From Sphingobacteriia bacterium RIFOXYC2_FULL_35_18 (GTDB taxonomy: Bacteria > Bacteroidota > Bacteroidia > Chitinophagales > Chitinophagaceae), in the NCBI GenBank assembly GCA_001829005.1, contig MIAG01000001.1, positions 709,007-773,006 of the forward strand: a stretch of 64,000 nucleotides of DNA. The letters run 5' to 3'. The first letter of the stretch is position 1; each line of letters starts with the position of its first letter. The notes below the pieces were generated by a model. It did no database searches. It had not been told where the DNA came from and was given only the letters and a program-made list of their open reading frames with translations. Shown in pieces: positions 1 to 17,407 of this stretch. A program made the position numbers and the translations under genes.

Positions 1-762
1 GCTAAGCAGTGGTGTGTACTCTGCTTAATGGTACAGGCTGTTTTATTGGCTGAAGGAATATTGGTTATAACAAATAACAGTTTTTCATTTTCTGAGACAA
101 AGGAAGCATTTGCAAACAATTTTATTTTGGCGCTATACGCTTTATTAATACCATCAATATCTTGGTTTTTGGTAAAGCCTTTGTTAAAAAGATTGCAGGT
201 AGCTAAGTACGAAAAGAGAAGTTATTCAATGCTAAAGTTTAACGATCAAGTATTTTGGTCATTGCTTAAAACTCAGCCATCCATTGTTGATCATTCTACA
301 AGTGAATTGGGTATAACTATTGGTAACCCCAATGCAAAACATACTATTATCAAAGTTTGCAATCCTTATTGTGGCCCTTGCGCAACAGCACATCCTGAGT
401 TAGAGAAAATTATTGAACTAAACCATGATGTAAAAGCACAAATCATTTTTACAGCAACTAATCAGGAGAATGATAGAGGTGCAAAACCAGTTAAACATTT
501 ATTAGCTATTGCTGAAAAAGGCAATGAACATATTACTCATAAAGCATTAGATGATTGGTATTTAGCTAAAGAAAAGAATTATGATGTTTTTGCCAACAAA
601 TACCCAATGAATGCAGAACTAGATAAACAAACAGACAAAATCAATCAAATGAAAGATTGGTGTGAAAAGGTGAAAATCGAATACACTCCAACTATTTTTA
701 TTGATGGTTTTCTATTACCAAAAGGATATCAAATAAAGGACATTAATTATTTTCTTTCATGA
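1..762 (+). CDS. VKOR-thioredoxin fusion protein, C-terminal part (5' end lies outside the window); paralog of 2752..4356
   Basis: Frame 1 is open from nt 1. It starts AKQWCVLCL (the VKOR CXXC helix), followed by one more hydrophobic helix and a thioredoxin/DsbA-like domain with CNPYCGPC. By eye there are about 30 substitutions over about 253 aligned residues against the C-terminus of 2752..4356. Confidence 0.85.
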   Translation, partial: AKQWCVLCLMVQAVLLAEGILVITNNSFSFSETKEAFANNFILALYALLIPSISWFLVKPLLKRLQVAKYEKRSYSMLKFNDQVFWSLLKTQPSIVDHSTSELGITIGNPNAKHTIIKVCNPYCGPCATAHPELEKIIELNHDVKAQIIFTATNQENDRGAKPVKHLLAIAEKGNEHITHKALDDWYLAKEKNYDVFANKYPMNAELDKQTDKINQMKDWCEKVKIEYTPTIFIDGFLLPKGYQIKDINYFLS

Positions 763-885
763 AAAAGAAAAAACATATTTCTTTTCGACTAGTACCCGAA
801 AAGAAAAGCCAAATGGTACTACACTTTATCGCGAATGAGTGGTTTGGCAAGCCAATAATCTGCTGATGCTTAAAGCTGCAGAAAC
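763..885 (+). repeat. Duplicated intergenic element, copy A (between the VKOR-fusion stop and the precursor gene)
   Basis: Aligns with 4357..4478. Two near-identical blocks (cgactagtacccgaaaagaaaNgccaaatggtactacactt and agtggtttggcNagccaataatctgctgatgct) flank a diverged patch. It contains inverted repeats TAGTACC(790..796)/GGTACTA(815..821) and TTGGC-N2-GCCAA (844..855). Confidence 0.5.
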
Positions 886-935
886 TCTTTATGTAACCGC
901 TATTTATAAAATAAAAATAGCATAAAATTTAATTT

Positions 936-1115
936 ATGAAACAGAAAGTCGAAAATTTAGGCTTCCTTTTACCTAAGAATGCTCAGAAGAAAATTTTAGG
1001 TGGGAATATTGAAGATGAAACAACACAATGCTATGAATGTACTGCAGGAGAAAAAGAATGGGGATTCGGTTGCCCTAGTCCATTGAGATCTGATTGTAAA
1101 TGCGAGAAGTGTTAG
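936..1115 (+). CDS. Double-glycine-leader Cys-rich peptide precursor P1 (59 aa), absent from the ORF track
   Basis: Hand translation gives MKQKVENLGFLLPKNAQKKILGG/NIEDETTQCYECTAGEKEWGFGCPSPLRSDCKCEKC*. The 23-aa leader aligns with those of 4507..4731 and 10400..10636. The core has 6 Cys. It occupies the same cassette position as P2. Confidence 0.8.
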   Translation: MKQKVENLGFLLPKNAQKKILGGNIEDETTQCYECTAGEKEWGFGCPSPLRSDCKCEKC

Positions 1116-1139
1116 GGGTTGATTTATAAGAATTTTCAT

Positions 1140-1184
1140 AATCAAAAATGATATAAGTGAAGAATACTTATATCATTTTTGATT
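1140..1184 (+). terminator. 19-bp perfect A/T-rich hairpin directly after precursor P1 (partial terminator or processing site)
   Basis: aatcaaaaatgatataagt-gaagaat-acttatatcatttttgatt. It ends in a T-rich run 14 nt before the ATG of 1199..2266. Confidence 0.5.
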
Positions 1185-1198
1185 TTAAATAAAATTTC

Positions 1199-2266
1199 AT
1201 GAATTTCATTATTGCTTTTTTAATGGTTTTGTTTACTAATTTTTCATTGTACTCACAAACCACAGATATTTCGATAAGTGGTAAAATTAATGGCACATAC
1301 CCTGATAAAATATTTTTATTTTTTGATGGAAATATAAATGCTAAAGATAGTCTAAGTTCAGTAATTGCAAATGGGCACTTCCAGTTTAATCTAAAAACAA
1401 AACTTCCAATATTATGTAGATTACATTTTAGCGAAAACACTAATATAGTTGAATTTTATATCGATAACCCAACTACATTAATTTACTTGAATAGTAAAAT
1501 TGAAACCAATAGTGAGAATAAAACAAAACGTACATATTTTGAACTTGACAGTATTAAGGGATCAGTTATCGAAGTCAATAGGCAGTTATTCGAAAAATCC
1601 TTAGCGAAAGTAGAAACACTTAATATTTCTACTATAGAAAAAAGAAATTTGCATTATAATTTATTAGATAGTTTTATCACAAAAAATCCTAAAAGCAAAC
1701 TTGCACTATACTTTTTGGCAACAAATAAAATTCTTTCTTTAAATCAAATTAACCTTCTAAAATCAAATTTTGATACTAGTCTTTTATCATCTTATGAAGG
1801 ACAAAAACTAAATCGATCAATAATATCGCTATTGCGCTTAAAAAATAGATTGATAGGAGAGCAATTTCACCATGTTAGTCTTCCAGATAAATTTGGAAAA
1901 AAGATTGAAACTTCAATATATGCTGGTAAAATTGTTTTAATAAATTTTTGGGCTTCCTGGTGCGCTCCATGTAGGGAAAAGCATCCAGAAGTAGTCAAAT
2001 TATTTAATTCTTATAAAAGATCTCAATTTGATATTATTGGTATTTCCTTTGATGATAATCTAGAATATTGGAGAGCAGCTGTAGTAAAGGATAAGATAAA
2101 ATGGTTACAGTTAATTGACACGAAATATACATATGGTACACTTTCTTCCTATTATGATATAAAAGGAGTGCCATCAAATATCCTTATTAATAGAGATGGA
2201 AAAATTTTGGGCTTTGATTTAACAAATCAAGAAATCAAAAAATTTACTGATGATAATCTTAAATAA
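1199..2266 (+). CDS. Secreted TlpA/redoxin-like thioredoxin-fold protein with an N-terminal DUF4369-like domain
   Basis: Signal-like N-terminus MNFIIAFLMVLFTNFSLYSQ. The C-terminal thioredoxin fold has NFWASWCAPC and the cis-Pro loop GVPSNILI. Confidence 0.85.
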   Translation: MNFIIAFLMVLFTNFSLYSQTTDISISGKINGTYPDKIFLFFDGNINAKDSLSSVIANGHFQFNLKTKLPILCRLHFSENTNIVEFYIDNPTTLIYLNSKIETNSENKTKRTYFELDSIKGSVIEVNRQLFEKSLAKVETLNISTIEKRNLHYNLLDSFITKNPKSKLALYFLATNKILSLNQINLLKSNFDTSLLSSYEGQKLNRSIISLLRLKNRLIGEQFHHVSLPDKFGKKIETSIYAGKIVLINFWASWCAPCREKHPEVVKLFNSYKRSQFDIIGISFDDNLEYWRAAVVKDKIKWLQLIDTKYTYGTLSSYYDIKGVPSNILINRDGKILGFDLTNQEIKKFTDDNLK

Positions 2267-2423
2267 TAGAACAGAATATTAATAACAAAGTCCTTCTAGT
2301 TAGAACCTAGCGTTTTTGGTTAATACTGAGGTTGAATTGTAAGTCCCCCAAATATTAAACAGTTTTATTTAGAGTGTAGTCATTTTTAGTATGGTTGGAT
2401 TTTTTTAAAATCATATTACTATT

Positions 2424-2577
2424 GCGCCCCCACCTGCCTCTATATGATAAGTAGGTACTATGGTCGTGTGTTAATTTTCAAACATCTGGGTTAAAGTTGA
2501 GTTTTGAAAAACTAATAGAAGAAGCTCCAAAGCCTGTAAATCTTCATTGGGGTTTAAACATTCAATTGTTTAGCAAA
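2424..2577 (+). pseudogene. Decayed remnant of the 5' end (C39 domain) of a second ABC exporter gene
   Basis: Nucleotide similarity to 6180..6405 (tatatgataagtaggtaYtatggtcgtgtg...ttttcaaacatctgggttaaagttRagttttgaaaaa...gaagaagc). There are internal deletions and a frameshift leading to a stop. A short stretch just after it resembles the HlyD 3' end. Confidence 0.7.
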
Positions 2578-2616
2578 TGTTCATTATATGAAATTTAATA
2601 GTTGCAGAATTGCTAG

Positions 2617-2632
2617 GGGGTATTTTTACCCC
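2617..2632. repeat. GGGGTA-TTTT-TACCCC hairpin (variant/inverted copy of the locus-specific hairpin element)
   Basis: It has the same stem as the elements at 2675 and 9743, but the loop is the complement (TTTT versus AAAA). Confidence 0.5.
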
Positions 2633-2674
2633 TTGATTTGATTTTTACATCTGAAAATAGCTTTCAATAATCAT

Positions 2675-2714
2675 CGGGGGGTAAAAATACCCCCCGCTGA
2701 TTTTTTTTATTTTG
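2675..2714 (+). terminator. Rho-independent terminator-like hairpin CGGGGGGTA-AAAA-TACCCCCCG plus T-tract
   Basis: 9-bp G/C-rich stem followed by ctgattttttttatttt. It is nearly identical to the element after the HlyD gene at 9743. Confidence 0.6.
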
Positions 2715-2751
2715 AAAATTATAATTGATGTTTACTGCATAATTAGAAATT

Positions 2752-4356
2752 ATGTTAACTGGTGTTTTATTTAATAGTTTACATGAAAATCAACCATTAA
2801 TTGTTGCCGCTTTATTAAAGGGATTAAAAGTGAACGTAAGCATGGAAACGATTAATGATACATTACAATCGCATCCCGACTATCCAAGCTTTTTATCTAT
2901 TTCAGATTCATTGAATAATTGGAAGGTTGAAAATCTGGTTATTCAAACTTCGGTAGAAAAATTATCAGAGATTCCCACACCATTTATTACAAGCTTTAAA
3001 AAAGGTGTTTTTGTAGGAGTATTAGAAGTTCTAGAAAATGAGCTAGTTATTGTAAACCAACAAGGCAAAAAAGAAACGATTGCTAAAAATGTATTTTTAT
3101 CTCAATGGACTGAAAACTTCTTAGTTGCTGAAGCAAATGAGTTTTCTGGAGAAATCAATTACCAACAAAAGATTAATGCTACTAGTGTAAAAACGGTTGT
3201 TTATAGTTTAATCCCACTAGGAATTTTGACTTCTTTATTCATTCCATACTTGAATGGTTCCATTACCCTTTTGCCCACATTGTATTTATTGGTGAAGTTA
3301 ATAGGTTTAACTGCATCTGTACTACTACTATGGTATGATATAGATAAAGGCAACCCTTTATTAAAACAAATCTGTTCAGGTATACAAAAAGCCAATTGCA
3401 GTGCTGTCTTAAATACCAAAGCTGCATCGCTAGGGGGCATAGTAACGTGGAGTGAAGTTGGCTTTGTATATTTTGCAGGGTCATTATTATTCTCAGCGAC
3501 CTCTGGTATTAGTAAGGTATTGCCTGTTTTAAGTATAATCTCCTTATTAGCCCTGCCTTATATCATTTTCTCTATTTATTACCAGTGGAAAGTAGCCAAG
3601 CAGTGGTGTGTACTCTGCTTAATGGTTCAGGCTGTTTTATTGGCTGAAGGAATATTGGTTATAGCAAATAACAGTTTATCATTTTCTGAGACAACAGCAG
3701 CATTTGCAAACAATTTCATTTTTGCACTTTACGCTTTACTCATTCCCACAATATTTTGGTTTTTATTAAAGCCATTGTTGAAAAGATTACAGATTGCTAA
3801 GTACGAAAAGAGAAGTTATTTAATGCTTAAGTTTAACGATGATGTATTTTGGTCATTGCTTAAAAATCAGCCATCTATTGTTGATCATTCTACAAGTGAA
3901 TTGGGTATAACTATTGGTAACCCCAATGCAAAACATACTATTATCAAAGTTTGCAATCCTTATTGTGGGCCATGTGCAACAGCACATCCTGATATTGAAA
4001 AGATTATTGAGAGTAATCCAGAGGTTAAAGCTCAAATTATTTTTACTACAACAAATCACGAGAATGACCGTGGTGCAAAACCTGTTAAACATTTATTAGC
4101 TGTATCTGAAAAAGGAGATGAAAATCTCACCAAAAATGCGCTTGACGATTGGTATTTGGCTAAAGAAAAAAGTTATGATGTTTTTGCCAACAAATACCCA
4201 ATGAATGGAGAAATAGATAAACAAACGGACAAAATCGACCAAATGAAAGAATGGTGTGAAAAAGTGAAAATTGAATACACTCCAACTATTTTTATTGATG
4301 GTTTTTTATTACCAAAAGGATATCAAATAAAGGACATCAATTATTTTCTTTCATGA
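2752..4356 (+). CDS. Three-domain fusion: non-catalytic C39-like domain + VKOR (vitamin K epoxide reductase family) + thioredoxin/DsbA-like domain
   Basis: The N-terminal ~130 aa align with the C39 domain of 6103..8391 (ISDSLNNWKVENLVIQTSVEKLSEIPTPFITSF vs ISDAAEKIGFQTSGLKLSFEKLIEEAPKPAILHW) but lack the catalytic Cys and His. The VKOR loop Cys pair is CSGIQKANC and the membrane CXXC is WCVLC. The C-terminal domain has CNPYCGPC. Confidence 0.85.
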   Translation: MLTGVLFNSLHENQPLIVAALLKGLKVNVSMETINDTLQSHPDYPSFLSISDSLNNWKVENLVIQTSVEKLSEIPTPFITSFKKGVFVGVLEVLENELVIVNQQGKKETIAKNVFLSQWTENFLVAEANEFSGEINYQQKINATSVKTVVYSLIPLGILTSLFIPYLNGSITLLPTLYLLVKLIGLTASVLLLWYDIDKGNPLLKQICSGIQKANCSAVLNTKAASLGGIVTWSEVGFVYFAGSLLFSATSGISKVLPVLSIISLLALPYIIFSIYYQWKVAKQWCVLCLMVQAVLLAEGILVIANNSLSFSETTAAFANNFIFALYALLIPTIFWFLLKPLLKRLQIAKYEKRSYLMLKFNDDVFWSLLKNQPSIVDHSTSELGITIGNPNAKHTIIKVCNPYCGPCATAHPDIEKIIESNPEVKAQIIFTTTNHENDRGAKPVKHLLAVSEKGDENLTKNALDDWYLAKEKSYDVFANKYPMNGEIDKQTDKIDQMKEWCEKVKIEYTPTIFIDGFLLPKGYQIKDINYFLS

Positions 4357-4478
4357 GAAAGAATAATCATATTTTTTTCGACTAGTACCCGAAAAGAAAT
4401 GCCAAATGGTACTACACTTGGTGATCAACAAGTGGTTTGGCGAGCCAATAATCTGCTGATGCTATAAGCTGCAGAAAC
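4357..4478 (+). repeat. Duplicated intergenic element, copy B
   Basis: Aligns with 763..885. It includes TTGGC-N2-GCCAA at 4437..4448. Confidence 0.5.
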
Positions 4479-4506
4479 ATTATTAATAAATTTAATTTTT
4501 TTAAAA

Positions 4507-4731
4507 ATGAAACTGAAATTCGGAAATTTCGGAACTTTACTCACTAGATCACAAGCGAAAAGTATTATTGGTGGATATATGGTAGAAGATCCTAGCTCAT
4601 GTACTGTAGATTGTACTGGATGTCCGCCATATAAATGTACTTCAAATTGCGAAGCAATGAAGAACGGTGAATCTGTAACTTGTGATGGAGTTACCAAAAA
4701 ATGTAAAGCTTACCCAACATGTTGGGAATAA
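4507..4731 (+). CDS. Double-glycine-leader Cys-rich peptide precursor P2 (74 aa)
   Basis: MKLKFGNFGTLLTRSQAKSIIGG/YMVEDPSSCTVDCTGCPPYKCTSNCEAMKNGESVTCDGVTKKCKAYPTCWE. The leader is 23 aa and the core has 8 Cys. Confidence 0.85.
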   Translation: MKLKFGNFGTLLTRSQAKSIIGGYMVEDPSSCTVDCTGCPPYKCTSNCEAMKNGESVTCDGVTKKCKAYPTCWE

Positions 4732-4735
4732 TTTT

Positions 4736-4766
4736 ATGCCGACTATTTTAGTCGGCATACTTTTTT
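4736..4766 (+). terminator. Rho-independent terminator directly after P2
   Basis: atgccgacta-ttt-tagtcggcat followed by acTTTTTT, 5 nt after the stop codon. Confidence 0.75.
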
Positions 4767-4777
4767 AAAACTTTAGA

Positions 4778-6049
4778 ATGTTTAAAATAGTAATATACTT
4801 TTTAATTTTAACGGGTTTTACTCCTTGCTTCTCACAATTTGATAAGGTGAATCTATCTGTTAAGCCTGGGAAAAATGAATTTGATTTTAGTACTTTCAAT
4901 TTTCATTTATCCAAACAAGATATTAATAGTTTTGTAATCCCTCCTTTAAAGTATCTTTTAATTTTTGATTCTTATACAAACGATAATAAATTATTCTACT
5001 TTAATTACAAGAATGGTATTGTACCTGATTCCATTTTTACATTAATTAAAAGCAAAAGAAGTCTTGATTCTGACGATTTTCTTGTCTTAGATAATGATGA
5101 TATTTTAGAAGTATTAGTTGGCATTGACTCATTAGATAATTTAATAATAATCCCTAATGCTAACAATAATAAATCATTTACTGACGACTCTGTTTATGTC
5201 TTTAAAAGAAGTTTACAACAAACTAATCAGTTTGAAATAAGTAATGTTGAATTTAAGAATATCGATTATCGGATAGGTAATAATAGTTCTAACTTGAAAA
5301 CTTACTATAAATTAAAGATAGAAGTTGATTTTGATAGTTTTGACAAGCTAAAAGTAATGTCAACAAATATTTCTTTTTATGAAGGAGTTATAATGATTGA
5401 TAATAATAACTTTATTTTAAAAATTCAATTAAGTGGAACAGGATTAGATTTTAAATATAAATATGGAATTTACTATAAACTCATAAGCCCAATTTTAAAT
5501 ACTGCTGTAAATTTAGTTCCCGAAAGAGAAATCAAGAAAAGCTCAACATTGGAAAAATATACGTTTACCCTAGATAGTGTAAGTCTTTTTGGTGATGTTG
5601 CTTATGTAAAAGTTAAAAAAAATAATAAAATCTTTAGTGAAACTTCTTTTATAAATAATCTTGAAGGTTTTAATTTATTAAATAATTCAACTTTTAAATT
5701 CCTCAATAATAGTTATTATAAAGTCCTTGACTTTTGGGCTTCTTGGTGCTTACCATGTTTGTCAGACCATAAACTATTAATGAATGATATTTTTAAAATT
5801 CAAGCTAAAAATGTATTATTCTTTGGTGTTATTAACGATGAGAATGATTTAATGAATTCAAAAAAATACTTATTAAATTCAAATTATTTATGGAAAAATT
5901 ATTTTATTAAATCCAAAAAGCATATCGAATATTTTAATGTCAAATCATTTCCAACTTATATTGTTTTATCAAAATTTAATCAAATTATTCTCAGAACTAA
6001 TAGTTATCAAGAATTAATGAATTTCATTAACCAATTAGATGTAAAATAA
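4778..6049 (+). CDS. Secreted protein with a large unknown N-terminal domain and a C-terminal TlpA/redoxin-like thioredoxin fold
   Basis: Signal-like MFKIVIYFLILTGFTPCFSQ. The C-terminal ~110 aa contain DFWASWCLPC and the cis-Pro loop SFPTYIVL. The gene is very A+T rich. Confidence 0.8.
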   Translation: MFKIVIYFLILTGFTPCFSQFDKVNLSVKPGKNEFDFSTFNFHLSKQDINSFVIPPLKYLLIFDSYTNDNKLFYFNYKNGIVPDSIFTLIKSKRSLDSDDFLVLDNDDILEVLVGIDSLDNLIIIPNANNNKSFTDDSVYVFKRSLQQTNQFEISNVEFKNIDYRIGNNSSNLKTYYKLKIEVDFDSFDKLKVMSTNISFYEGVIMIDNNNFILKIQLSGTGLDFKYKYGIYYKLISPILNTAVNLVPEREIKKSSTLEKYTFTLDSVSLFGDVAYVKVKKNNKIFSETSFINNLEGFNLLNNSTFKFLNNSYYKVLDFWASWCLPCLSDHKLLMNDIFKIQAKNVLFFGVINDENDLMNSKKYLLNSNYLWKNYFIKSKKHIEYFNVKSFPTYIVLSKFNQIILRTNSYQELMNFINQLDVK

Positions 6050-6102
6050 TTTTTATTGGACTAATTATGATTAACCGCTGCTGAGATTTTTAGCTCCTTT
6101 TA

Positions 6103-8391
6103 GTGAAAACATATATTAACTCAAGCTTTATTAAACAAAACTTCTTTTTCTACCCTCAACAAAACCAAATGGACTGCGGTCCTACTTGTTTGTATATGAT
6201 AAGTAGGTATTATGGTCGTGTGTTTGCATTAGAGAAGCTAAGGGAGTTAACAGAGATAGGTAAGGAGGGTGTTAATTTATTAGGTATTAGTGATGCTGCT
6301 GAAAAGATAGGTTTTCAAACATCTGGGTTAAAGTTAAGTTTTGAAAAATTAATTGAAGAAGCGCCAAAACCCGCAATACTGCATTGGGGGCAAAACCATT
6401 TCATTGTTTTACCACCACAAAAGAGGGCTTTTTTTTCAAAGCCAAAAAACATAATAATAGCTGATCCCGCTAAAGGGATTATTACCATCAGCAAAGAGCT
6501 GTTCTTACAAAAATGGATAAGTGATAAAAATGAGGATGGGGAGTCTACCGGTATTGCCTTAATTCTAGAGCCTGGACAAAACTTTTATAATGCCAATTAC
6601 GGGCATGATTTTAAAGAGTTAACAAACAACCATGCTAACCAACTTTGGGGTTATATAAAGCCACATAAAAAACTGGTATTCCAACTTTTCTTAGGGGTCA
6701 TGCTGGGTAGTTTATTGCAATTGGTATTTCCTTTTCTCACACAAAGTGTAGTTGATGTTGGTATCAACACTCAAAATATTCAATTTGTATATATTGTTTT
6801 ATTAGCTCAACTGGCTTTGTTTATTGGGCGTTTGGGAGTAGAATTTATTCGCAGTTGGATTTTATACCATATCAGTAGTCGAATCAATATTTCTATTCTT
6901 ACGGGTTTTTTGATAAAGCTGATGAAATTGCCATTGGCTTATTTTGATAGCAAAAAAACAGGGGATATTCTTCAAAGAATGAATGACCATAAACGCATTC
7001 AAAATTTCTTGACTGGAACTTCACTTAGTACTTTGTTTTCTCTATTCAATTTATTGGTTTTTTCTGTTGTGTTGCTTAATTATAGTGTACTCATTTTTGG
7101 TGTTTTTACAGCTGCTAGTGTGCTATACATTTTATGGATTTTAATCTTCTTAAAGAAAAGAAAAGAGCTTGATTACCAGCAGTTTGATATTGCTGCTGCA
7201 GAACAGAGCAGTACCATTCAATTGGTACAAGGTATGCAGGAGATTAAGTTGCATGGTAGTGAAAAACAACAAAGATGGCAATGGGAACATTTACAAGCAT
7301 CACTATTTAGGGTAGGAATGAAAGGGCTTGCATTAAATCAATGGCAACAAGCGGGTGCTTTCTTTATTAACGAGGGCAAAAATATATTCATCACATTTGT
7401 GGCAGCAACAGCAGTGATCCAAGGACAAATAACCCTTGGCGCAATGCTTGCAATTCAATATATCATTGGGCAATTAAACTCCCCAATTGAGCAAATGATT
7501 GGGTTCGTTCAAAATTGGCAATTGGCTAAAATTAGTCTGGAAAGATTGAATGAAATACATCAATTGGCCGATGAAGAACAGTTCAATTTGAACAGTGATG
7601 CTTCTTCAGCCTTGGTTACAGAGTTGCCTCAAAACCGATCTATACACCTTCAAAATATCAGCTTTACCTATCCAGGCGCTGGTAATGAGCCTGTACTTAA
7701 AAATATTTCCATGCAAATACCACAAGGAAAAGTAACAGCGATTGTAGGGTCTAGTGGCAGTGGTAAAACCACCTTACTAAAATTATTGCTCAAATTTTAT
7801 GAAGCGAAGTCTGGGGATATATATATTGGTGATCAGGCAGAATCAGCAGGTTTAAATTTGTCAAATATTAGCCATCGTGCTTGGCGTAAACAGTGTGGTG
7901 TAGTAATGCAAGACAGCTTTATTTTTTCTGATAGTATTGCTAAAAATATAGCTGTTGGGGAAGATTATCCCGATAAGGCAAGGTTAAGATATGCTGCAAA
8001 AATTGCCAATATCACTTCGTTTATCGAAAGTTTACCACTGGGTTATAATACCAAAATTGGTGCAGAAGGCACGGGGGTAAGTGCAGGGCAAAGACAAAGG
8101 ATCTTAATTGCTAGAGCTGTTTACAAAAACCCGGATCTAATTTTATTAGATGAAGCTACCAACGCATTAGATTCTAATAATGAAAGTACTATTTTAAAAA
8201 ACTTAAACTTGTTTTTTGAAGGTAAAACAGTTGTAGTGGTAGCACACCGCTTAAGCACTGTTCGTAATGCTGACCAAATAGTGGTATTACACAATGGGGT
8301 GATTACCGAGCAAGGTACACATGCTAAATTAACAGCAATGAAGGGTGAATATTTTACTTTGGTTAAAAATCAATTAGAATTAGGTGATTAA
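6103..8391 (+). CDS. Peptidase C39 domain-containing bacteriocin-type ABC exporter
   Basis: GTG start. C39 motifs QMDCGPTCLYM and NHFIVL. A six-helix membrane domain. Walker A GSSGSGKTT, signature VSAGQRQR and Walker B LILLDEAT. Confidence 0.93.
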   Translation: MKTYINSSFIKQNFFFYPQQNQMDCGPTCLYMISRYYGRVFALEKLRELTEIGKEGVNLLGISDAAEKIGFQTSGLKLSFEKLIEEAPKPAILHWGQNHFIVLPPQKRAFFSKPKNIIIADPAKGIITISKELFLQKWISDKNEDGESTGIALILEPGQNFYNANYGHDFKELTNNHANQLWGYIKPHKKLVFQLFLGVMLGSLLQLVFPFLTQSVVDVGINTQNIQFVYIVLLAQLALFIGRLGVEFIRSWILYHISSRINISILTGFLIKLMKLPLAYFDSKKTGDILQRMNDHKRIQNFLTGTSLSTLFSLFNLLVFSVVLLNYSVLIFGVFTAASVLYILWILIFLKKRKELDYQQFDIAAAEQSSTIQLVQGMQEIKLHGSEKQQRWQWEHLQASLFRVGMKGLALNQWQQAGAFFINEGKNIFITFVAATAVIQGQITLGAMLAIQYIIGQLNSPIEQMIGFVQNWQLAKISLERLNEIHQLADEEQFNLNSDASSALVTELPQNRSIHLQNISFTYPGAGNEPVLKNISMQIPQGKVTAIVGSSGSGKTTLLKLLLKFYEAKSGDIYIGDQAESAGLNLSNISHRAWRKQCGVVMQDSFIFSDSIAKNIAVGEDYPDKARLRYAAKIANITSFIESLPLGYNTKIGAEGTGVSAGQRQRILIARAVYKNPDLILLDEATNALDSNNESTILKNLNLFFEGKTVVVVAHRLSTVRNADQIVVLHNGVITEQGTHAKLTAMKGEYFTLVKNQLELGD

Positions 8392-8400
8392 AGACGAATT

Positions 8401-9738
8401 ATGCCTCAACAAGAAGAATCATATAGTTTAGATGCAATGCTCGAAGCGGCTAATATTGAACGGTTAGATGAGGCAGATCGTATTTATAGCCATGAGGTTC
8501 GCGAAATCATTAGCAGTAAACCTGTATGGATAGTAAGAAATGGCATTGCAATGTTTTTTGGCATTATTGGTTTGTTATTTACGTTAACTTTTTTTATTCA
8601 ATACCCAGATATCGTTAAAGCACCTGTAAAAATTGTTGGGGATAATTTGCCAAAACAAATTATTAGTAAATCTGAAGGACGAATTGTTTATTTAAATGCA
8701 CTTGAAAATAAAAAAGTAATTGTTGGTGACGTTTTAGCCATTTTACAAAGTAATGCAGATTACAAACAAGTGCTGTTGTTTAAAAAATGGATTGATCAAA
8801 CTGAACTTGATTTAAAAGGAAATAATTGGAATGCGATTAGCCAGTTAGCAACACTCAATCAATTGGGAGATTTACAAAAAAATTATCAAGATATTGCCCA
8901 ACAAATCTATCAACTCTCTTGGGCAAAGACTAAAGGGTACTTTAACCAAAAACGTGATGCCATTGCTCAAGACATTAGGCTGATTAATCTGTCTAAGGAG
9001 AACGCGAATAATCAAAAGCAATTGATTCTTCAAGATTTAGCAATGCAACAAGGAGTATTGGACATTAATGAAAAACTGGCTAATGAAAAAGTGATTGCAC
9101 CGCTTGATTTAATTAAGGATAAATCAACCGTATTATCTAAGAAACAACAATTAGTTCAAGTTGATGCTGCGGATATTAATCAGTCTGCTAATATTGTTGC
9201 CAAACAAAAAGAATTATTGGAAATTGAAAAGCTAAATGCGGATATCCAACAAAACTTTATTGCAGCTCTCTTTAATGCCAAAAGTGCATTGACCGAATGG
9301 TCAAATCGATACATATTAGTTGCCAGTGAAACAGGTACTTTACAATTTGCCAGTTACTTTCAAGAGAATAGTTGGATCAAAACGGGTCAAGAGCTCTTTT
9401 ATATTATTCCGAAACAACCCACCTATTTTGCAGAGCTGATTGCATCCCAACAGAATTTTGGCAAATTAAAGCAAGGTCAACAGGTGAATATTGCACTTAA
9501 TAGTTATCAACGAAATGAATTTGGTGTGTTACAAGGAACTATCATTAATATTCCGCAAGTTCCCTATAAAGACACTAGTTTCTTAATTAAGGTTAAGCTA
9601 ACTAAAGGTTTGCAAACAAATTATCAAAAGCCCATCCATTTTAGTAATAGTTTGACTGGCACTGCAGATGTCATTACAGCGGAAGCTAGTTTAGCCGATC
9701 GGTTATTGTATCAATGGAGGGGTTTGTTTGCAAGATAA
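8401..9738 (+). CDS. HlyD-family secretion adaptor (membrane fusion protein)
   Basis: Single N-terminal TM helix, a long coiled-coil middle region and a C-terminal beta domain. It lies directly after the ABC exporter gene (9-nt gap). Confidence 0.85.
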   Translation: MPQQEESYSLDAMLEAANIERLDEADRIYSHEVREIISSKPVWIVRNGIAMFFGIIGLLFTLTFFIQYPDIVKAPVKIVGDNLPKQIISKSEGRIVYLNALENKKVIVGDVLAILQSNADYKQVLLFKKWIDQTELDLKGNNWNAISQLATLNQLGDLQKNYQDIAQQIYQLSWAKTKGYFNQKRDAIAQDIRLINLSKENANNQKQLILQDLAMQQGVLDINEKLANEKVIAPLDLIKDKSTVLSKKQQLVQVDAADINQSANIVAKQKELLEIEKLNADIQQNFIAALFNAKSALTEWSNRYILVASETGTLQFASYFQENSWIKTGQELFYIIPKQPTYFAELIASQQNFGKLKQGQQVNIALNSYQRNEFGVLQGTIINIPQVPYKDTSFLIKVKLTKGLQTNYQKPIHFSNSLTGTADVITAEASLADRLLYQWRGLFAR

Positions 9739-9742
9739 TTTT

Positions 9743-9774
9743 CGGGGGGTAAAAATACCCCCCGGTATTATTTT
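9743..9774 (+). terminator. Rho-independent terminator CGGGGGGTA-AAAA-TACCCCCCG plus T-rich tail
   Basis: Begins 4 nt after the HlyD stop. It is the same element as at 2675. Confidence 0.7.
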
Positions 9775-9791
9775 GGGCTTGATATTAGAAT

Positions 9792-10382
9792 ATGTATGTT
9801 CACGGTATGAACTTATCTATAAAATGGTATATTTTTTTTATTCTTTGTTCCTTCGTAGTTAAAAATTCTTTTTCTCAACAACAATACGAGAATAAAAAAA
9901 TAAAATTTATTGAATCAGTAACTGAATATTCAACTCTGGAAGAATTTTTGTCAAGACCAATTTATAAAGATAAAATTGTTTACATCGATCTTTGGGGTAC
10001 CACTTGTTTACCTTGCCTCAGAGAATTTAAGTATATGAACACATTAAAGAAAAAGCTAAAAAATTATGATATTAGTTTCCTCTTTATATGTCAGAATACC
10101 CAAGGTGATACCAATAATGAGTGGAAACGAAAATGGAAATCAATAGTGAATAAATATCAGTTAGAAGGTACACATATATATACCTACTTAAAACCCCCTG
10201 ATAAATTCGTGCATGAAAAAATTGACTTTGAGTACATGAAAAAAAATATTAATGAACCGTTAGGTTATGGTATACCAAGGTATCTCATTGCCAAAGGCGG
10301 GAAAATATTAATCTATAATGCATACAAGCCTAGTGATGTTTTTAAATTAACACACCAAATAGATTCATTAAATCTTTTTTAA
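9792..10382 (+). CDS. Secreted small TlpA/redoxin-like thioredoxin-fold protein
   Basis: Signal-like MNLSIKWYIFFILCSFVVKNSFSQ (an alternative start at 9807 is plausible). Active site LWGTTCLPC and cis-Pro loop GIPRYLI. Confidence 0.8.
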   Translation: MYVHGMNLSIKWYIFFILCSFVVKNSFSQQQYENKKIKFIESVTEYSTLEEFLSRPIYKDKIVYIDLWGTTCLPCLREFKYMNTLKKKLKNYDISFLFICQNTQGDTNNEWKRKWKSIVNKYQLEGTHIYTYLKPPDKFVHEKIDFEYMKKNINEPLGYGIPRYLIAKGGKILIYNAYKPSDVFKLTHQIDSLNLF

Positions 10383-10399
10383 AAATCAATTTAAGTAAA

Positions 10400-10636
10400 A
10401 TGAAACAAAACTTATCAAAAATCGGAAATGCCCTTTCAAGGCAAATGCAAAAAAGTATTGTAGGTGGTATTGAGTCTGGTTCATGGTTATGTACATTTAC
10501 ATACACAAATGGCTTAACATTGACTCAGGTTTTTACTGAGCCAAATGGAAATGCAGCTCAATGTGCGGCTGATTATGTTTGTTGGTCTGATAATACTTGC
10601 ACAAATGCTGATTGTGCTGGTTCTGGCGAGTGTTAA
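10400..10636 (+). CDS. Double-glycine-leader Cys-rich peptide precursor P3 (78 aa)
   Basis: MKQNLSKIGNALSRQMQKSIVGG/IESGSWLCTFTYTNGLTLTQVFTEPNGNAAQCAADYVCWSDNTCTNADCAGSGEC. The leader is 23 aa and the core has 6 Cys. Confidence 0.85.
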   Translation: MKQNLSKIGNALSRQMQKSIVGGIESGSWLCTFTYTNGLTLTQVFTEPNGNAAQCAADYVCWSDNTCTNADCAGSGEC

Positions 10637-10660: not shown

Positions 10661-11143
10661 ATGCAAACAAAGCAGGGACACCATAATAGTACCTATATTC
10701 GGAAATACTATACTGTAAAATCCCGCAATCGTTTGTGTTGTTTTTTTGAGAAGCGGTATGTTGTCAAAAGCATATTTGCTTTATTGTGCTTCTACTTTTT
10801 TAGTTGCCGTTCAAGCCAATACAAAAAAGACTATATCAATAAAAGAGGTGAACGAGTTTTTACTGATTACAATAATAATCGTACAATTATATTTTCAGGC
10901 GAAGCTGCAAAATTAAATGCCATACTACGGAAAGATCAATTTCTTGATACTGTTTCCTTTCGGGAATTGAAAAAAAGAATCAATGTATACGAACGATTTA
11001 TTGCTTTACATCCTGACTCAATTATTGTAAGACAAACTGACTTTCCTCAGAAATTAACTCAGATTGACTCGTTTTATGTAAACAAGTATAAAATAAAGTA
11101 CTTAAAACGAAATAAGATTACATCTCCAAATATTCATTTCTAA
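10661..11143 (+). CDS. Hypothetical protein (possible membrane-anchored or lipoprotein; start uncertain)
   Basis: 160-aa ORF with a hydrophobic segment SIFALLCFYFFSC near the N-terminus. I recognise no family. Confidence 0.45.
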   Translation: MQTKQGHHNSTYIRKYYTVKSRNRLCCFFEKRYVVKSIFALLCFYFFSCRSSQYKKDYINKRGERVFTDYNNNRTIIFSGEAAKLNAILRKDQFLDTVSFRELKKRINVYERFIALHPDSIIVRQTDFPQKLTQIDSFYVNKYKIKYLKRNKITSPNIHF

Positions 11144-11177: not shown

Positions 11178-12398
11178 ATGTTAAAAACGATAATTAGCAA
11201 ATTAAGAATTAGTATTATAACTTCAGTTCTCTTGCTAATTAATTCAGTATTCCTTCAATTAGCTGTAAAGGGAAATCCTATCAATGTATACAATAATTCA
11301 CTTTTGAATAAAAATTGTGTATCACAGGATAGTCTTATTTATTTTAAAATCATTGATTCTATTTCAAAGGAAACTATTCCATTTGCAACAATCATTTTTA
11401 TTGAGAATGACACAAATAAAATGTCTATTGTTTCAAATGAAGATGGCTCATTTTCTATTCCCAATTCAAGCTTCCCCAAAAAGGTAAAAATTTCTGCAGT
11501 TGGTTATGAAGAACAACTGTTTTATTTGTTTCATGTTAATCGGTTGCTTTTGAAGCCATTAAAGAGCTTATTACCTGAAATTATCGTTAGAAGTAAGGCA
11601 ATGAAATCAAGGAGCGCAAACGCAATAATTAAACAGGTAGCTAATCGCTTTGAGGATAACTATGGCAATTTTTCTTTTAGTCAAAATTTAAAATTTTCCT
11701 CAGTAATTTATAATTACGACACTTTAAAAGAAAAGGCTGAAGAATTTGTAAAGGTATATTATCGAAATGCTGATAAAAGCATGAAATCTCCAAATTGGAT
11801 TAAAGACACTTTATATCAGGATAAACTTTTCACCAATTTTATTGGAGTTTCCCGATTATGTACAGGTGATATTATTCCATGGTTTGATATGCTGCGAAAA
11901 GGGTTGCCAATTGACGGAAATAATAATAAAGGATTAGACTTTAAACTTATTTCCAAATACAAGGATGAAAAATATGGTCTTGTTTATATTGTAAGTTTCA
12001 TGCCAAATAAATCTTTTAAAGATTCATTTTTAGGTCGAACTGTTGGAGGATTAGCAAGAGGATACCTGAAAGGAGAAATCAGGATAAGAGAATTAGATTA
12101 TTCAATTATTAGATTGAAGTATGTCTGGGAAATGAAAGTTGAATCTCTCAATAGAGGTACAACCAATTTATTTCATACTAAAACATGGAAAGCAAATCGT
12201 GTTACAAAAATGATATCAGATAAAATATTTTACAAGTATGATTATATGTATTATAAGGATGTTCATACTGGTAAATACTTTATTGACTCAATCAATGCGG
12301 AATGCTTTAATTCAGGATATCAAATCGAAACTAATCGCAACTTACTTTTAAACATAAAATTTAATGTTAGTAATAATGGAATTGAGATAGATAAATAA
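11178..12398 (+). CDS. Hypothetical secreted/membrane protein with a carboxypeptidase-regulatory-like (CarboxypepD_reg) beta-sandwich domain
   Basis: N-terminal hydrophobic helix. The segment FKIIDSISKETIPFATIIF...DGSFSIP...ISAVGYEE is typical of CarboxypepD_reg domains. Confidence 0.6.
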   Translation: MLKTIISKLRISIITSVLLLINSVFLQLAVKGNPINVYNNSLLNKNCVSQDSLIYFKIIDSISKETIPFATIIFIENDTNKMSIVSNEDGSFSIPNSSFPKKVKISAVGYEEQLFYLFHVNRLLLKPLKSLLPEIIVRSKAMKSRSANAIIKQVANRFEDNYGNFSFSQNLKFSSVIYNYDTLKEKAEEFVKVYYRNADKSMKSPNWIKDTLYQDKLFTNFIGVSRLCTGDIIPWFDMLRKGLPIDGNNNKGLDFKLISKYKDEKYGLVYIVSFMPNKSFKDSFLGRTVGGLARGYLKGEIRIRELDYSIIRLKYVWEMKVESLNRGTTNLFHTKTWKANRVTKMISDKIFYKYDYMYYKDVHTGKYFIDSINAECFNSGYQIETNRNLLLNIKFNVSNNGIEIDK

Positions 12399-12414: not shown

Positions 12415-13605
12415 TTAATACATAAACCCAAATAGCCATAACGGAATTTTGGTTCCAATTCCTATTTCAATTTCATCTGCTACAATGATGTGTTTTTCAG
12501 TTGCTTTCACTTGTTTAGCCGTTTTATTTTTTCCGCCTACTTCTATATGATAGCCTTCTGTCAAGAAATCACCTTCTTTAGGCGCAGATACAACCAAACC
12601 AGCATTTTGCAATTGATTAAAGAGAAATGTCTCCCTTAAATTACCTATATCTGGGGAACTCGTTAATGCGTATGATAGATTCGTATTCTCTAAATAGATC
12701 TTTTCCGGTTTTTGCAAAGTTGAAATTCCTTTCCCCGAGGCTTGTAAGGTGTTGATTATTCTTGCCTGTGTTAGTTGAGATATATAAGTATAAAGACTGT
12801 CTCTACTTATGTCTAATTTTTGCGCTAATGCACTAATATTTGGTTTGAATGGAATCGACTCTGCAATTACAGCAATTAATTTTTTCACTTTTAGCGCAGT
12901 GCCTGGTCCATAAGATGCAATAAATGCTAAATCTGTTTCAATTACTGCATTGATGATTTGATTCAGCTTTATAGGATATTCTTTTTCACCTTCCGCTGTA
13001 ATGGGCAAATAACCATACTGTAAATATTTTTTGAATAGCGGTAGGGGGTGTAGGTCTTCTGTTATTTTAACTGCTATTTGGTGATGATTTTTTAGTAAGT
13101 CTTTAAACGAATAAGCTTTTAATTTTTGTTGTGTTGAAAACTCTATGAACTCTCTAAATGATAATCCTGCTAAACTATAATGAATCACTCTTCTGCTTAA
13201 ATCGGCTTCTCCTCTATATATATCTAGTGCACTTGAGGCGGAGAATATTATTTTTAAATCGGCAAACCCATCATAAATATTTTTTAATTCTCTTGACCAA
13301 TTCGGATACTTATGAACTTCGTCAATTATTAAAATACGCCCTCCCAATTTATACCAATCTTCTGCAGTTTCTAGTAAAGAGTGATTATAAAACCATGTAT
13401 GATCTGCTGTTACATACAGCGCATTTGCTGGTTGTTTTAAATCAAATTTTAAATATTGTAGTAATAAGGTTGTTTTGCCAGAACCCCTTGGGCCTTTAAT
13501 ACCAATCATTCGTTGGTTCCAATTAATATTGGCATGTAGGTACCTGCGAAAATTATTGTGAATGCCTTTTAATAAGCCAGCCTGAAAACTAAATAGGGTT
13601 TCCAT
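12415..13605 (-). CDS. AAA-family ATPase (AAA_14/DUF4143-type ATP-binding protein)
   Basis: Walker A GPRGSGKTTLL and Walker B ILIIDEVH. The size and C-terminal region are typical of DUF4143 proteins. Confidence 0.8.
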   Translation of the reverse strand: METLFSFQAGLLKGIHNNFRRYLHANINWNQRMIGIKGPRGSGKTTLLLQYLKFDLKQPANALYVTADHTWFYNHSLLETAEDWYKLGGRILIIDEVHKYPNWSRELKNIYDGFADLKIIFSASSALDIYRGEADLSRRVIHYSLAGLSFREFIEFSTQQKLKAYSFKDLLKNHHQIAVKITEDLHPLPLFKKYLQYGYLPITAEGEKEYPIKLNQIINAVIETDLAFIASYGPGTALKVKKLIAVIAESIPFKPNISALAQKLDISRDSLYTYISQLTQARIINTLQASGKGISTLQKPEKIYLENTNLSYALTSSPDIGNLRETFLFNQLQNAGLVVSAPKEGDFLTEGYHIEVGGKNKTAKQVKATEKHIIVADEIEIGIGTKIPLWLFGFMY

Positions 13606-16372: not shown

Positions 16373-16375
16373 TGT

Positions 16376-17407
16376 TTAAATGGTTGTTTCAACCACAGGT
16401 AATTGTCTGGGTTGCATTTTTCTTACGTTGTCTGCAATATGTTTAATATGATCGGGTGTTGTTCCGCAACAACCACCTACAATATTCACGAAACCTTCTT
16501 TGGCCCACTCTTCAATAAAATGTGCTGTTTCATGTGGGGCTTCATCGTATTCTCCCATGGCATTCGGTAACCCTGCATTGGGATAGGCCGATGTATAACA
16601 GGCTGCTATTTGTGATAACTCTTCTATATGACTTCTCATTTCTGCTGCACCCAATGCGCAGTTCAATCCAATGCTGATGGGGTTGGCATGTAATACCGAT
16701 GTGTAAAATGCTTCTAGTGTTTGTCCACTCAGGGTTCTGCCCGATGCATCGGTAATGGTTCCGCTGATCATGATGGGTAATTCTGGTATGCCCTTGTCTC
16801 TGAAATATTTTTTGGCTGCGTAAATGGCGCCCTTTGCATTCAGTGTATCAAATATGGTTTCAATTAATAGTATGTCTACACCACCATTAACCAATCCATC
16901 TATTTGTTCGTAATAGGCATTGGCTACTTCGTCAAATGTAACTGCTCTAAATCCTGGATTGTTTACATCGGGTGATAAGCTCAATGTTTTGTTCAATGGG
17001 CCTATGGCTCCTGCAACAAATTTGGGTCCTGTACCTGGATGTTTTTGCATGAACTCCGCTACTGCTTCGCGGGCACATTTAGCGGCGGCTACGTTCAACT
17101 CATAAGCCAAACTTTGCATATCGTAGTCTGCCATAGCAATGGTAGTACTACTGAATGTATTGGTTTCAATAATGTCTGCACCTGCTTCTAAATACAACAA
17201 GTGGATACCCTTAATAATTTGTGGTTGGGTGATGCAGAGTAAATCATTGTTACCCTTTACATCTAAATGCCAGTCTTTAAATTGCTCACCTCTGTAATCG
17301 GCTTCTGTTAATTGATGCCTTTGAATCATCGTGCCCATGGCACCATCTATTACAAGGATTCTTTTCTGGAGTTCTTCTTTTATTAGCATAGCTATTGGTT
17401 CAAACAC
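16376..17407 (-). CDS. Homocysteine S-methyltransferase domain protein (N-terminal module of a split MetH)
   Basis: [13 protein letters not shown] and [11 protein letters not shown] motifs. The track start is GTG at 17407, and an ATG at 17389 is an alternative start. Confidence 0.9.

Follow-up and report, generated by a model that had tools for sequence, protein, structure and literature searches.

A 64,000-nucleotide stretch of the genome of Sphingobacteriia bacterium RIFOXYC2_FULL_35_18 (contig MIAG01000001.1, positions 709,007 to 773,006; hereafter, the window) opens with a locus that encodes cysteine-rich precursor peptides bearing double-glycine (GG) leaders, a C39-type ABC exporter with its HlyD-family adaptor, TlpA-like thioredoxin-fold proteins, and a membrane protein in which a C39-like domain is fused to vitamin K epoxide reductase (VKOR) as well as a DsbA-like domain. 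Based on the linkage of these genes in related loci, we consider it very likely that the locus carries out dedicated oxidative folding of its co-encoded peptides. We further favor, with moderate confidence, a scheme in which disulfides are installed in the cytoplasm under the guidance of the peptide leader.

Linkage of a VKOR fusion protein to double-glycine-leader peptides

Homologs of the window proteins were mapped by BLAST in 78 fetched loci, in which the one-strand order of fusion gene, peptide gene, one to several TlpA-like genes, C39-ABC exporter and HlyD adaptor is near-universal. This gene order is found across Chitinophagaceae, other metagenome-assembled genomes (MAGs) labelled Chitinophagales or Sphingobacteriia, and one Bacteroidales MAG, and in shorter contigs from Paludibacter, Gillisia and Saprospiraceae the fusion gene is present and, as far as the sequence extends, peptide and TlpA-like genes too. 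Among the 66 loci with enough sequence for a peptide check, 63 harbor a leader-bearing, cysteine-rich open reading frame (ORF) within 1.5 kb 3' of the fusion gene; of the 46 loci with at least 9 kb of downstream sequence, 43 have the exporter and HlyD genes and 39 have a TlpA-like gene. A preliminary description of this DNA had proposed that the redox genes are dedicated to one peptide family and had set, as a test beforehand, that fusion homologs should show enriched linkage to GG-leader peptides or C39 exporters. Such linkage is clearly enriched, and the commitment of the redox genes to GG-leader peptides is strongly supported by the 63/66 and 43/46 counts. Seven loci have the layout fusion, peptide, ABC exporter and HlyD (F-p-A-H) with no TlpA-like gene, indicating that TlpA-like genes are dispensable there and that the fusion suffices as oxidase. 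Relatives of the fusion make up at least 1578 database clusters at E<1e-5 and are encoded in 324 species-representative genomes. Family members currently bear no annotation more specific than "vitamin K epoxide reductase family protein" or "thioredoxin domain-containing protein"; we found no curated NCBIfam model for either the fusion or the peptides.

Every ORF named in the preliminary description was recovered at its coordinates. These include three precursor genes, peptide 1 (936-1115; here and below, on the forward strand unless noted), peptide 2 (4507-4731) and peptide 3 (10400-10636), each of which, as had been reported, begins with a 23-aa leader ending in GG, followed by cores of 36, 51 and 55 aa with 6, 8 and 6 cysteines, respectively. 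The expectation that the small ORFs are conserved as coding in relatives holds for two of them: peptide 1 is kept at 97-98% in three loci (L007, L013 and L020), and peptide 3 shares 49% identity with a homolog in which all six cysteines align (L050:4566-4802). The core of peptide 2 has no close homolog among the 78 loci, its leader alone being conserved. Two peptide 1-like ORFs elsewhere (L003:6511-6687 and L008:6510-6686; approximately 70% identity to peptide 1), in which GG is changed to DW and the first core cysteine is lost, look like decaying precursor genes.

Across loci, leaders are conserved and cores vary. A hidden Markov model (HMM) profile built from leaders alone, which also catches leader ends of the IMAG type, found 120 peptides in the 78 loci, 119 on the strand of the fusion gene and one on the opposite strand, and a second leader type (MKTxKMSLANIQGKLSRxEMKNIMAG) was found in loci that had seemed peptide-less. 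The cysteines that follow the leader number 6 in 71 of these peptides and 8 in 32, and are even in number in 109 of 120, as expected if every cysteine pairs. GG-leader ORFs with at least four cysteines are similarly distributed, with 150 on the fusion strand versus 8 opposite in the 78 loci. No curated family matches the peptides, which display only sub-threshold leader resemblance to leader_Chryseo, TIGR04149, lant_leader_L1b and Bacteroid_pep. In agreement with the preliminary description, Pfam finds no Lan, radical-SAM or YcaO domain in any ORF of the first 13.6 kb, nor does it find a DsbB or glycosyltransferase domain there. We propose that the peptides are bacteriocin-like, of class II type, with disulfide bonding as their sole modification; the knotted shape ascribed to them in the preliminary description is putative. 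In 17 related loci, some with two copies, a DUF6625 protein (~283 aa, N-terminal CWYGxYPWY) is encoded on the cluster strand (e.g. L033:5114-5965, also L032 and L061); the loci inspected have it placed between the exporter and the peptide/TlpA genes. The window does not encode this protein, which may be an additional tailoring enzyme.

The complete fusion protein of the window (paralog B; 2752-4356, 534 aa) was assigned from Pfam matches, invariant cysteines, an AlphaFold model and fold matches. In Pfam, it matches Peptidase_C39 at residues 18-128 (nt 2803-3135; E 3e-8), VKOR at 178-302 (52.3 bits, cutoff 27.5) and Thioredoxin_4 at 383-518. The VKOR core (nt 3283-3657) carries the loop cysteines Cys208 and Cys216 and a CxxC motif at 286-289 (nt 3607-3618) followed by transmembrane helix (TM) 5, and the DsbA-like domain (nt 3898-4305) carries a CGPC motif at 405-408 (nt 3964-3975); C208, C216, C286, C289, C405 and C408 are invariant in 60 homologs. 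Both hallmarks of the VKOR family, a PF07884 match above cutoff and the combination of paired loop cysteines with a CxxC where TM4 begins, are present. Also invariant in the DsbA-like domain are C401 and H412, and C502 is nearly so (nt 3952-3996 and 4255-4257; motif CNPYCGPCxxxH); these residues could form a structural disulfide or a metal site. Structure comparison of the AlphaFold model (pLDDT 87.7, pTM 0.66) indicates that the C-terminal domain folds like members of the DsbA family (ScsC, alpha-DsbA2 and BdbD), while the N-terminal domain matches the peptidase domain of ComA (ComA-PEP), leader-bound LahT150 and PCAT1, with target-normalised TM-scores of 0.75-0.76 for ComA-PEP and LahT150 (0.76 against the leader-bound LahT150 protease, PDB 6MPZ).

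Despite this fold, the N-terminal domain appears unable to act as a peptidase. When the C39-like domains of 60 fusion proteins were aligned with those of 48 co-located exporters, the catalytic cysteine and the catalytic histidine were each found in 0 of 60 fusions, whereas Cys25, His99 and Asp121 are retained by 47-48 of the 48 exporters. By sequence, the domain is a conserved yet catalytically dead C39 domain, which makes it a candidate leader-binding module rather than a peptidase, a point on which the preliminary description needs correction. The preliminary description also listed two paralogous C39-like/VKOR/thioredoxin fusions, and this stands in full for paralog B. Only the last 253 codons of paralog A lie in the window (1-762), the gene continuing past its left edge; they encode the end of the VKOR membrane domain and a DsbA-like thioredoxin domain (Thioredoxin_4 E 1.5e-11 in Pfam; VKOR-region HMM E 8.7e-18). 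A C39 part is predicted for paralog A from the 90% nucleotide identity of 1-300 to 3595-3894 and from the syntenic locus L007.

The exporter (6103-8391) is a peptidase-containing ABC transporter (PCAT) with Peptidase_C39, ABC_membrane and ABC_tran domains and an intact Cys25, His99 and Asp121 triad, and its best NCBIfam models are NHLM_micro_ABC1 and bacteriocin_ABC. Downstream lies a HlyD-family membrane-fusion adaptor with an N-terminal TM anchor (8401-9738; HlyD_3 in Pfam, type_I_hlyD in NCBIfam), and the C39-ABC exporter and HlyD pair described previously is thereby borne out. The hallmarks of PCAT systems, namely precursor leaders of about 15-30 aa ending in GG (or GA/AG, as in the IMAG-type leaders of some relatives) and an exporter whose N-terminal C39 domain bears a Cys/His/Asp triad, are present, and we propose that leader removal by this exporter is coupled to export. 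HlyD adaptors usually bridge to an outer-membrane channel, bypassing the periplasm.

Three TlpA-like proteins complete the set. TlpA-like protein 1 (1199-2266) has a signal peptide ending in YS before Q, DUF4369 as its N-domain and, at the C-terminus, a thioredoxin fold with a WCAPC motif; TlpA-like protein 2 (4778-6049) has a signal peptide ending in FS before Q, a large N-domain without assignment and a C-terminal thioredoxin fold with WCLPC; and the short TlpA-like protein 3 (9792-10382, 196 aa) has a signal peptide ending in FS before Q and a TCLPC motif. A signal peptide that ends in S before Q is the Bacteroidota signal-peptidase pattern. The earlier account of three secreted WCxPC proteins thus stands with regard to signal peptides and needs correction at the third motif. 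In Pfam, the first protein matches Thioredoxin_8 (8.9e-20), Redoxin, AhpC-TSA and DUF4369, with ResA/TlpA as its best NCBIfam models. The second and third match Thioredoxin_8 and Redoxin, respectively, below the Pfam gathering score, and their assignment draws on CxPC motifs, BLAST matches to the same family and NCBIfam matches to the ResA/TlpA group (ResA/DsbE for the second; ResA, 1.5e-7, for the third). Among 102 TlpA-like proteins from the loci, 90 have an N-terminal hydrophobic signal sequence and 83 a CxxC motif, almost always CxPC. Their sequences place these proteins in the periplasm. A TlpA-like gene follows 75 of 116 peptide genes, and the proteins are probably peptide-specific; their role could be isomerization and proofreading or, alternatively, reductive self-protection.

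Predicted membrane orientation of the fusion and the proposed folding pathway

Hydropathy and the AlphaFold model agree on six membrane helices in the fusion, the first of which (TM0, residues 149-167, nt 3196-3252) precedes the Pfam VKOR start at residue 178. This helix count would place the C39-like domain, the two VKOR cysteine pairs and the DsbA-like domain together on one side of the membrane. Several lines of evidence point to this being the cytoplasmic side. Lysine and arginine residues (K+R) in loops and flanks number 17.3 per protein on the domain-bearing side (12.8 when short regions alone are counted) versus 0.7 on the other, a bias shared by all 60 homologs. A profile covering the C39-like domain, the linker and TM0 could be aligned with residues 79-181 of PCAT1, which comprise its cytoplasmic peptidase domain and the start of its in-to-out TM1, and no signal peptide precedes the 148-residue N-terminal domain of the fusion. 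In outward-facing Synechococcus and human VKOR, basic residues mark the TM2-TM3 loop but not that between TM3 and TM4, and this pattern is reversed in the fusion family (0.12 for TM2-TM3 vs 1.93 for TM3-TM4). Controls for the charge analysis were partial, consisting of human VKORC1, a Synechococcus fragment and the co-encoded exporter. In the latter, the short TM1-TM2 and TM3-TM4 loops, which we take to be periplasmic in such exporters, contain no lysine or arginine, and the charge rule accordingly holds for this protein. A Protein Data Bank sequence search with the VKOR region and a protein search with the Synechococcus VKOR fragment each gave no match, and the VKOR-region HMM found no unfused VKOR in the window or the fetched loci.

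Taking hydropathy, charge bias, AlphaFold secondary structure and homology together, we consider it likely that the redox sites of the fusion face the cytoplasm. All bacterial VKORs characterized to date face outward, and published examples of the inward-facing type are restricted to a few Crenarchaea, among them Aeropyrum pernix (PMC13486548); the window enzyme would thus be inverted relative to every characterized bacterial VKOR. That such an arrangement can work in a bacterium is indicated by an engineered inverted VKOR, which drives disulfide formation in the cytoplasm of E. coli (PMC5471842). The preliminary description had combined VKOR and the secreted thioredoxins in a single apparatus, a one-compartment picture that is probably wrong, since the fusion is predicted to face the cytoplasm and the TlpA-like proteins have signal peptides; the two probably act in different compartments.

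These considerations suggest the following pathway. A precursor would be made with its 23-aa GG leader, and the dead C39-like domain would hold this leader in the cytoplasm while the DsbA-like domain passes disulfides to the core, with VKOR and membrane quinone re-oxidizing the DsbA-like domain. Disulfides would in this way be installed in the leader-bearing precursor ahead of export, after which the intact C39-ABC exporter would cut the leader and, together with HlyD, export the folded peptide. In the periplasm, the TlpA-like CxPC proteins would proofread, isomerize or reductively protect the producer. This leader-guided scheme would explain how peptides on a periplasm-bypassing route could acquire three to four disulfides and why an oxidase would carry a leader-binding fold. 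Our confidence declines as claims are added. A cytoplasmic, leader-guided scheme as such seems to us somewhat better than an even bet, while the full combination, in which a naturally inverted, quinone-linked VKOR-DsbA is recruited by a dead C39 domain to form multiple cytoplasmic disulfides, the peptides exit through PCAT and HlyD past the periplasm, and the TlpA-like proteins provide proofreading or reductive self-immunity, is offered tentatively and at slightly less than even chances.

Several observations weigh against this scheme. The cytoplasm is reducing, and the CGPC active site of the DsbA-like domain is of the thioredoxin type. Substrates of type I secretion are usually unfolded in transit, whereas the scheme calls for export of a folded peptide; the PCAT1 cavity is reportedly roomy enough for small folded proteins. 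Leader binding by the C39-like domain is predicted from fold and conservation, and a weak indication, namely that divergence between leader types is greater in this domain than in the VKOR or DsbA-like parts (between/within leader-type identity ratios of 0.82, 0.90 and 0.97, respectively), is confounded by phylogeny and domain-specific rates. Concerning topology, the long VKOR loop is rich in lysine and arginine even in outward-facing human VKORC1 and so is not diagnostic by itself, and the TlpA-like proteins encoded in the same operon are periplasmic. Finally, the bacteroidetocins of Bacteroidales, which have been proposed as class IIf bacteriocins (Coyne et al. 2019), need the homologous thiol oxidoreductase for toxin activity, and it conferred no immunity (PMC6671954); an enzyme that serves production in this manner fits periplasmic oxidation more simply. 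This precedent favors a role in production for the TlpA-like proteins, constitutes the main tension with an inward-facing fusion, and keeps an outward-facing one under consideration.

One alternative leaves folding to the fusion alone and regards the TlpA-like proteins as peptide-specific immunity factors, periplasmic reductants that would open the disulfides of re-entering or leaked peptides. Classically, the immunity gene of a class II bacteriocin is the one directly following the bacteriocin gene, and a peptide gene followed by a TlpA-like gene is the rule in these loci. Moreover, CxPC motifs are typical of the reducing TlpA/ResA/CcmG group, the N-domains of the TlpA-like proteins are divergent, and the fusion is kept in loci that have no TlpA-like gene. 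We nonetheless regard this reading, which stands on inference only, as unlikely, given that no DsbD/CcdA-type electron supplier was found in the locus and that the bacteroidetocin homolog, which was required for activity, did not protect (PMC6671954).

A second alternative places the whole pathway outside the cytoplasm, such that cleaved peptides would be oxidized in the periplasm by VKOR-DsbA, either directly or through re-oxidized TlpA-like oxidases or isomerases, and the dead C39 domain would have another role, for example docking. It has the merit of bringing every redox part into one compartment, agrees with the outward orientation of all characterized bacterial VKORs (PMC13486548) and with the requirement for a TlpA-type protein in bacteroidetocin production (PMC6671954), and accommodates TlpA-like proteins with signal peptides whose genes adjoin peptide genes (75/116). 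It also demands, however, that a charged 148-aa N-terminal domain be exported without a signal peptide, and in all 60 proteins it would leave about 13 K+R of the short flanks facing the periplasm, compared with 0.7 facing the cytoplasm. The homology of TM0 to the in-to-out TM1 of PCAT1 runs counter to it, a leader-binding fold would be placed where the leader is already gone, and HlyD, whose adaptors usually bypass the periplasm, is near-universal in the loci. On balance, we find this arrangement rather doubtful. Least probable by far is that the cysteines serve another use, such as metal binding, or that the small ORFs are silent and the redox genes are nearby envelope housekeeping: the peptides match no curated family and their expression and oxidation are inferred rather than directly observed, but a strand bias of 119:1, synteny that is near-universal across genera, even cysteine counts in 109 of 120 peptides with conserved leaders and variable cores, the coding conservation of peptides 1 and 3 with aligned cysteines, and conserved partners that are all thiol-disulfide enzymes or the GG-leader exporter leave little room for it.

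Duplication, regulatory features and neighboring genes

The arrangement of genes in the window indicates that a module was duplicated in tandem to give rise to the locus, with an exporter remnant left behind. Two segments, 1-300 and 779-885, are 88-90% identical to 3595-3894 and 4372-4478, respectively. The second of these is a conserved intergenic stretch 5' of peptide 1 (779-885), whose copy lies 5' of peptide 2 (4372-4478; 88% identity) and which is probably a peptide promoter or regulatory region. The 485-bp gap between TlpA-like protein 1 and fusion paralog B (2267-2751) contains pseudogene fragments of an exporter N-terminus (2423-2559, as 2423-2472 and 2475-2559) that are 84-85% identical to 6175-6224 and 6312-6396 of the intact exporter gene, as well as a GC-rich hairpin terminator (2675-2696) that is a copy of the one following HlyD and marks the end of the decayed first module. 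From these fragments and the terminator copy, it appears that the exporter-HlyD pair was deleted from the duplicated module.

The terminator 3' of HlyD itself (9742-9765) has a 10-bp stem with 7 GC pairs. Another hairpin, directly 3' of peptide 2 (4735-4759; 11-bp stem followed by CTTTTTT), is likely an attenuator or terminator and might allow the precursor transcript to outnumber that of the downstream genes. A scan for sigma-70 promoters, which is ill-suited to those of Bacteroidota, revealed no enrichment (66 found vs 66.2 expected). A LuxR/NarL-type response regulator (Response_reg plus GerE) occurs in 27 loci, with 24 of 28 copies on the opposite strand, and may control the cluster; in L002 it is found on the reverse strand approximately 2.4 kb 5' of the fusion gene (L002:6986-7621), a region that would fall beyond the left edge of this window.

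The best protein matches come from Sediminibacterium (Chitinophagaceae), with a match of 100% along a partial MAG protein and one of 92% to the ortholog in S. salmoneum. Peptide 3 is followed by a 160-aa ORF with no Pfam match (10661-11143) and a 406-aa ORF with a weak CarboxypepD_reg-like domain and an N-terminal hydrophobic segment (11178-12398). Because their BLAST matches are confined to Sediminibacterium-clade loci (L001-L008 and L019), both are probably not core parts of the system. An AAA_14/DUF4143 ATPase gene (12415-13605, reverse strand) separates the cluster from metH, and the genes to the right of ~12.4 kb are housekeeping genes (metH, recR and leucine genes). Methionine synthase (13667-17407, reverse strand) is represented by two adjacent ORFs 3 nt apart, 16376-17407 (homocysteine S-methyltransferase domain, GTG start) and 13667-16372 (901 aa), reflecting either a split metH or an in-frame stop.

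Significance and comparison with known systems

Disulfide-rich peptides are prized as stable drug scaffolds, and to our knowledge bacteria have not been a rich genetic source of them. The 78 loci hold more than 100 distinct cores with 6 or 8 cysteines, each with a portable leader, oxidase and exporter. If the predicted topology is true, it would answer the long-standing puzzle of how type I-secreted peptides of Gram-negative bacteria, which never meet the periplasmic Dsb proteins, obtain their disulfides. It would likewise extend leader recognition, the organizing principle of the biosynthesis of ribosomally synthesized and post-translationally modified peptides, to oxidative folding, and would provide a natural, substrate-targeted counterpart to the engineered cytoplasmic disulfide systems of biotechnology. 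Under the full scheme, the fusion would be without precedent both as a leader-guided disulfide "tailoring enzyme" and as an inward-facing VKOR of bacteria.

The closest characterized system is that of the bacteroidetocins. Their loci encode a membrane protein, a GG-leader cysteine-containing peptide, a thiol oxidoreductase and a C39-ABC exporter, and these four genes suffice for toxin production in E. coli (PMC6671954). The claim in the preliminary description that no characterized system has the composition seen here was thus too strong: bacteroidetocin loci share peptide, dedicated oxidoreductase and exporter, and it is already established by experiment that a GG-leader peptide of Bacteroidota can have its own thiol-disulfide enzyme (PMC6671954). 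The likeness extends to the phylum, to the order of a GG-leader cysteine peptide, an AhpC/TlpA-type oxidoreductase and a C39-ABC exporter, and to a membrane protein gene 5' of the peptide gene. Bacteroidetocin loci differ, however, in having no VKOR, DsbA-like domain, dead C39 domain or HlyD, and their leaders are shorter and their cores poorer in cysteine (a 15-aa leader and 4 cysteines, compared with 23-aa leaders and 6-8 cysteines in the window); the class as a whole has leaders of 15-16 aa and mature peptides of 42-53 aa (PMC6671954).

We recovered the Bd-A precursor from the supplement of PMC6671954 and found its loci on human-gut metagenome contigs (L079-L081). The oxidoreductase of L079 is a membrane-anchored, 171-aa AhpC-TSA/Thioredoxin_8 protein with a CDFC motif that belongs to the superfamily of the window TlpA-like proteins. 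The bacteroidetocins and the window peptides are unrelated: a database search with Bd-A returned 10 close relatives, with no window-type peptide among the matches listed. The upstream 5-TM protein, which is genetically required for toxin activity yet has only scattered cysteines and no family match, was considered as a hidden VKOR and rejected (222 aa, no CxxC, no Pfam match, hhalign probability of 0.4% against the fusion profile). The gene caller product for Bd-A is 79 aa, 22 residues beyond the published 57-aa precursor, and overlaps the end of this upstream gene.

Bacteriocin-dedicated thiol-disulfide oxidoreductases are also found in Gram-positive bacteria, in the sublancin cluster of the B. 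subtilis phage SPbeta (sunA-sunT-bdbA-sunS-bdbB) and in the pediocin accessory protein PedC, and here too a GG-leader peptide is paired with a C39-ABC exporter. In these cases, however, oxidation is extracytoplasmic and the oxidase is BdbB, a DsbB-type enzyme, or PedC, a membrane-anchored thioredoxin, rather than VKOR; sublancin is furthermore S-glycosylated by SunS, and neither oxidase has a leader-binding domain. A precedent for a dead C39 domain is the C39-like domain (CLD) of HlyB, which has lost its catalytic cysteine and binds substrate instead of cutting it. The CLD and LahT150 (PDB 6MPZ) share the C39 fold with the fusion N-domain, and the CLD also shares the absence of the catalytic cysteine. 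Domains of the CLD and LahT150 type belong to the exporter, whereas that of the fusion is attached to a redox enzyme, VKOR-DsbA.

As an enzyme, the fusion resembles canonical VKOR-thioredoxin proteins (Synechococcus, PDB 3KP9 and 4NV2; M. tuberculosis) in its four-helix core, loop cysteine pair and CxxC, fifth helix, fused thioredoxin-fold partner and transfer of electrons to quinone. The canonical proteins have five TMs with the N-terminus inside and the thioredoxin domain outside, while the fusion has six, a reversed charge pattern and a predicted orientation opposite to theirs, and its partners are a DsbA-like (Thioredoxin_4) domain and an N-terminal C39-like domain. In being quinone-linked with cysteines that, by prediction only, face the cytoplasm, the fusion would be akin to ApVKORi of Aeropyrum pernix (PMC13486548) and to the inverted VKOR and DsbB of CyDisCo (PMC5471842). 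ApVKORi, however, belongs to an archaeal hyperthermophile and forms general cytoplasmic disulfides, and the inverted CyDisCo enzyme is artificial; neither is substrate-targeted, whereas the fusion comes from a mesophilic bacterium and is dedicated to one peptide family. Within the literature searched, we found nothing on C39+VKOR fusions or on VKOR in bacteriocin loci. Compared with these known systems, novelty lies in the fusion of VKOR-DsbA with a C39-like domain, in the orientation predicted for it, and in the size and diversity of the repertoire of 6- and 8-cysteine peptides encoded alongside.

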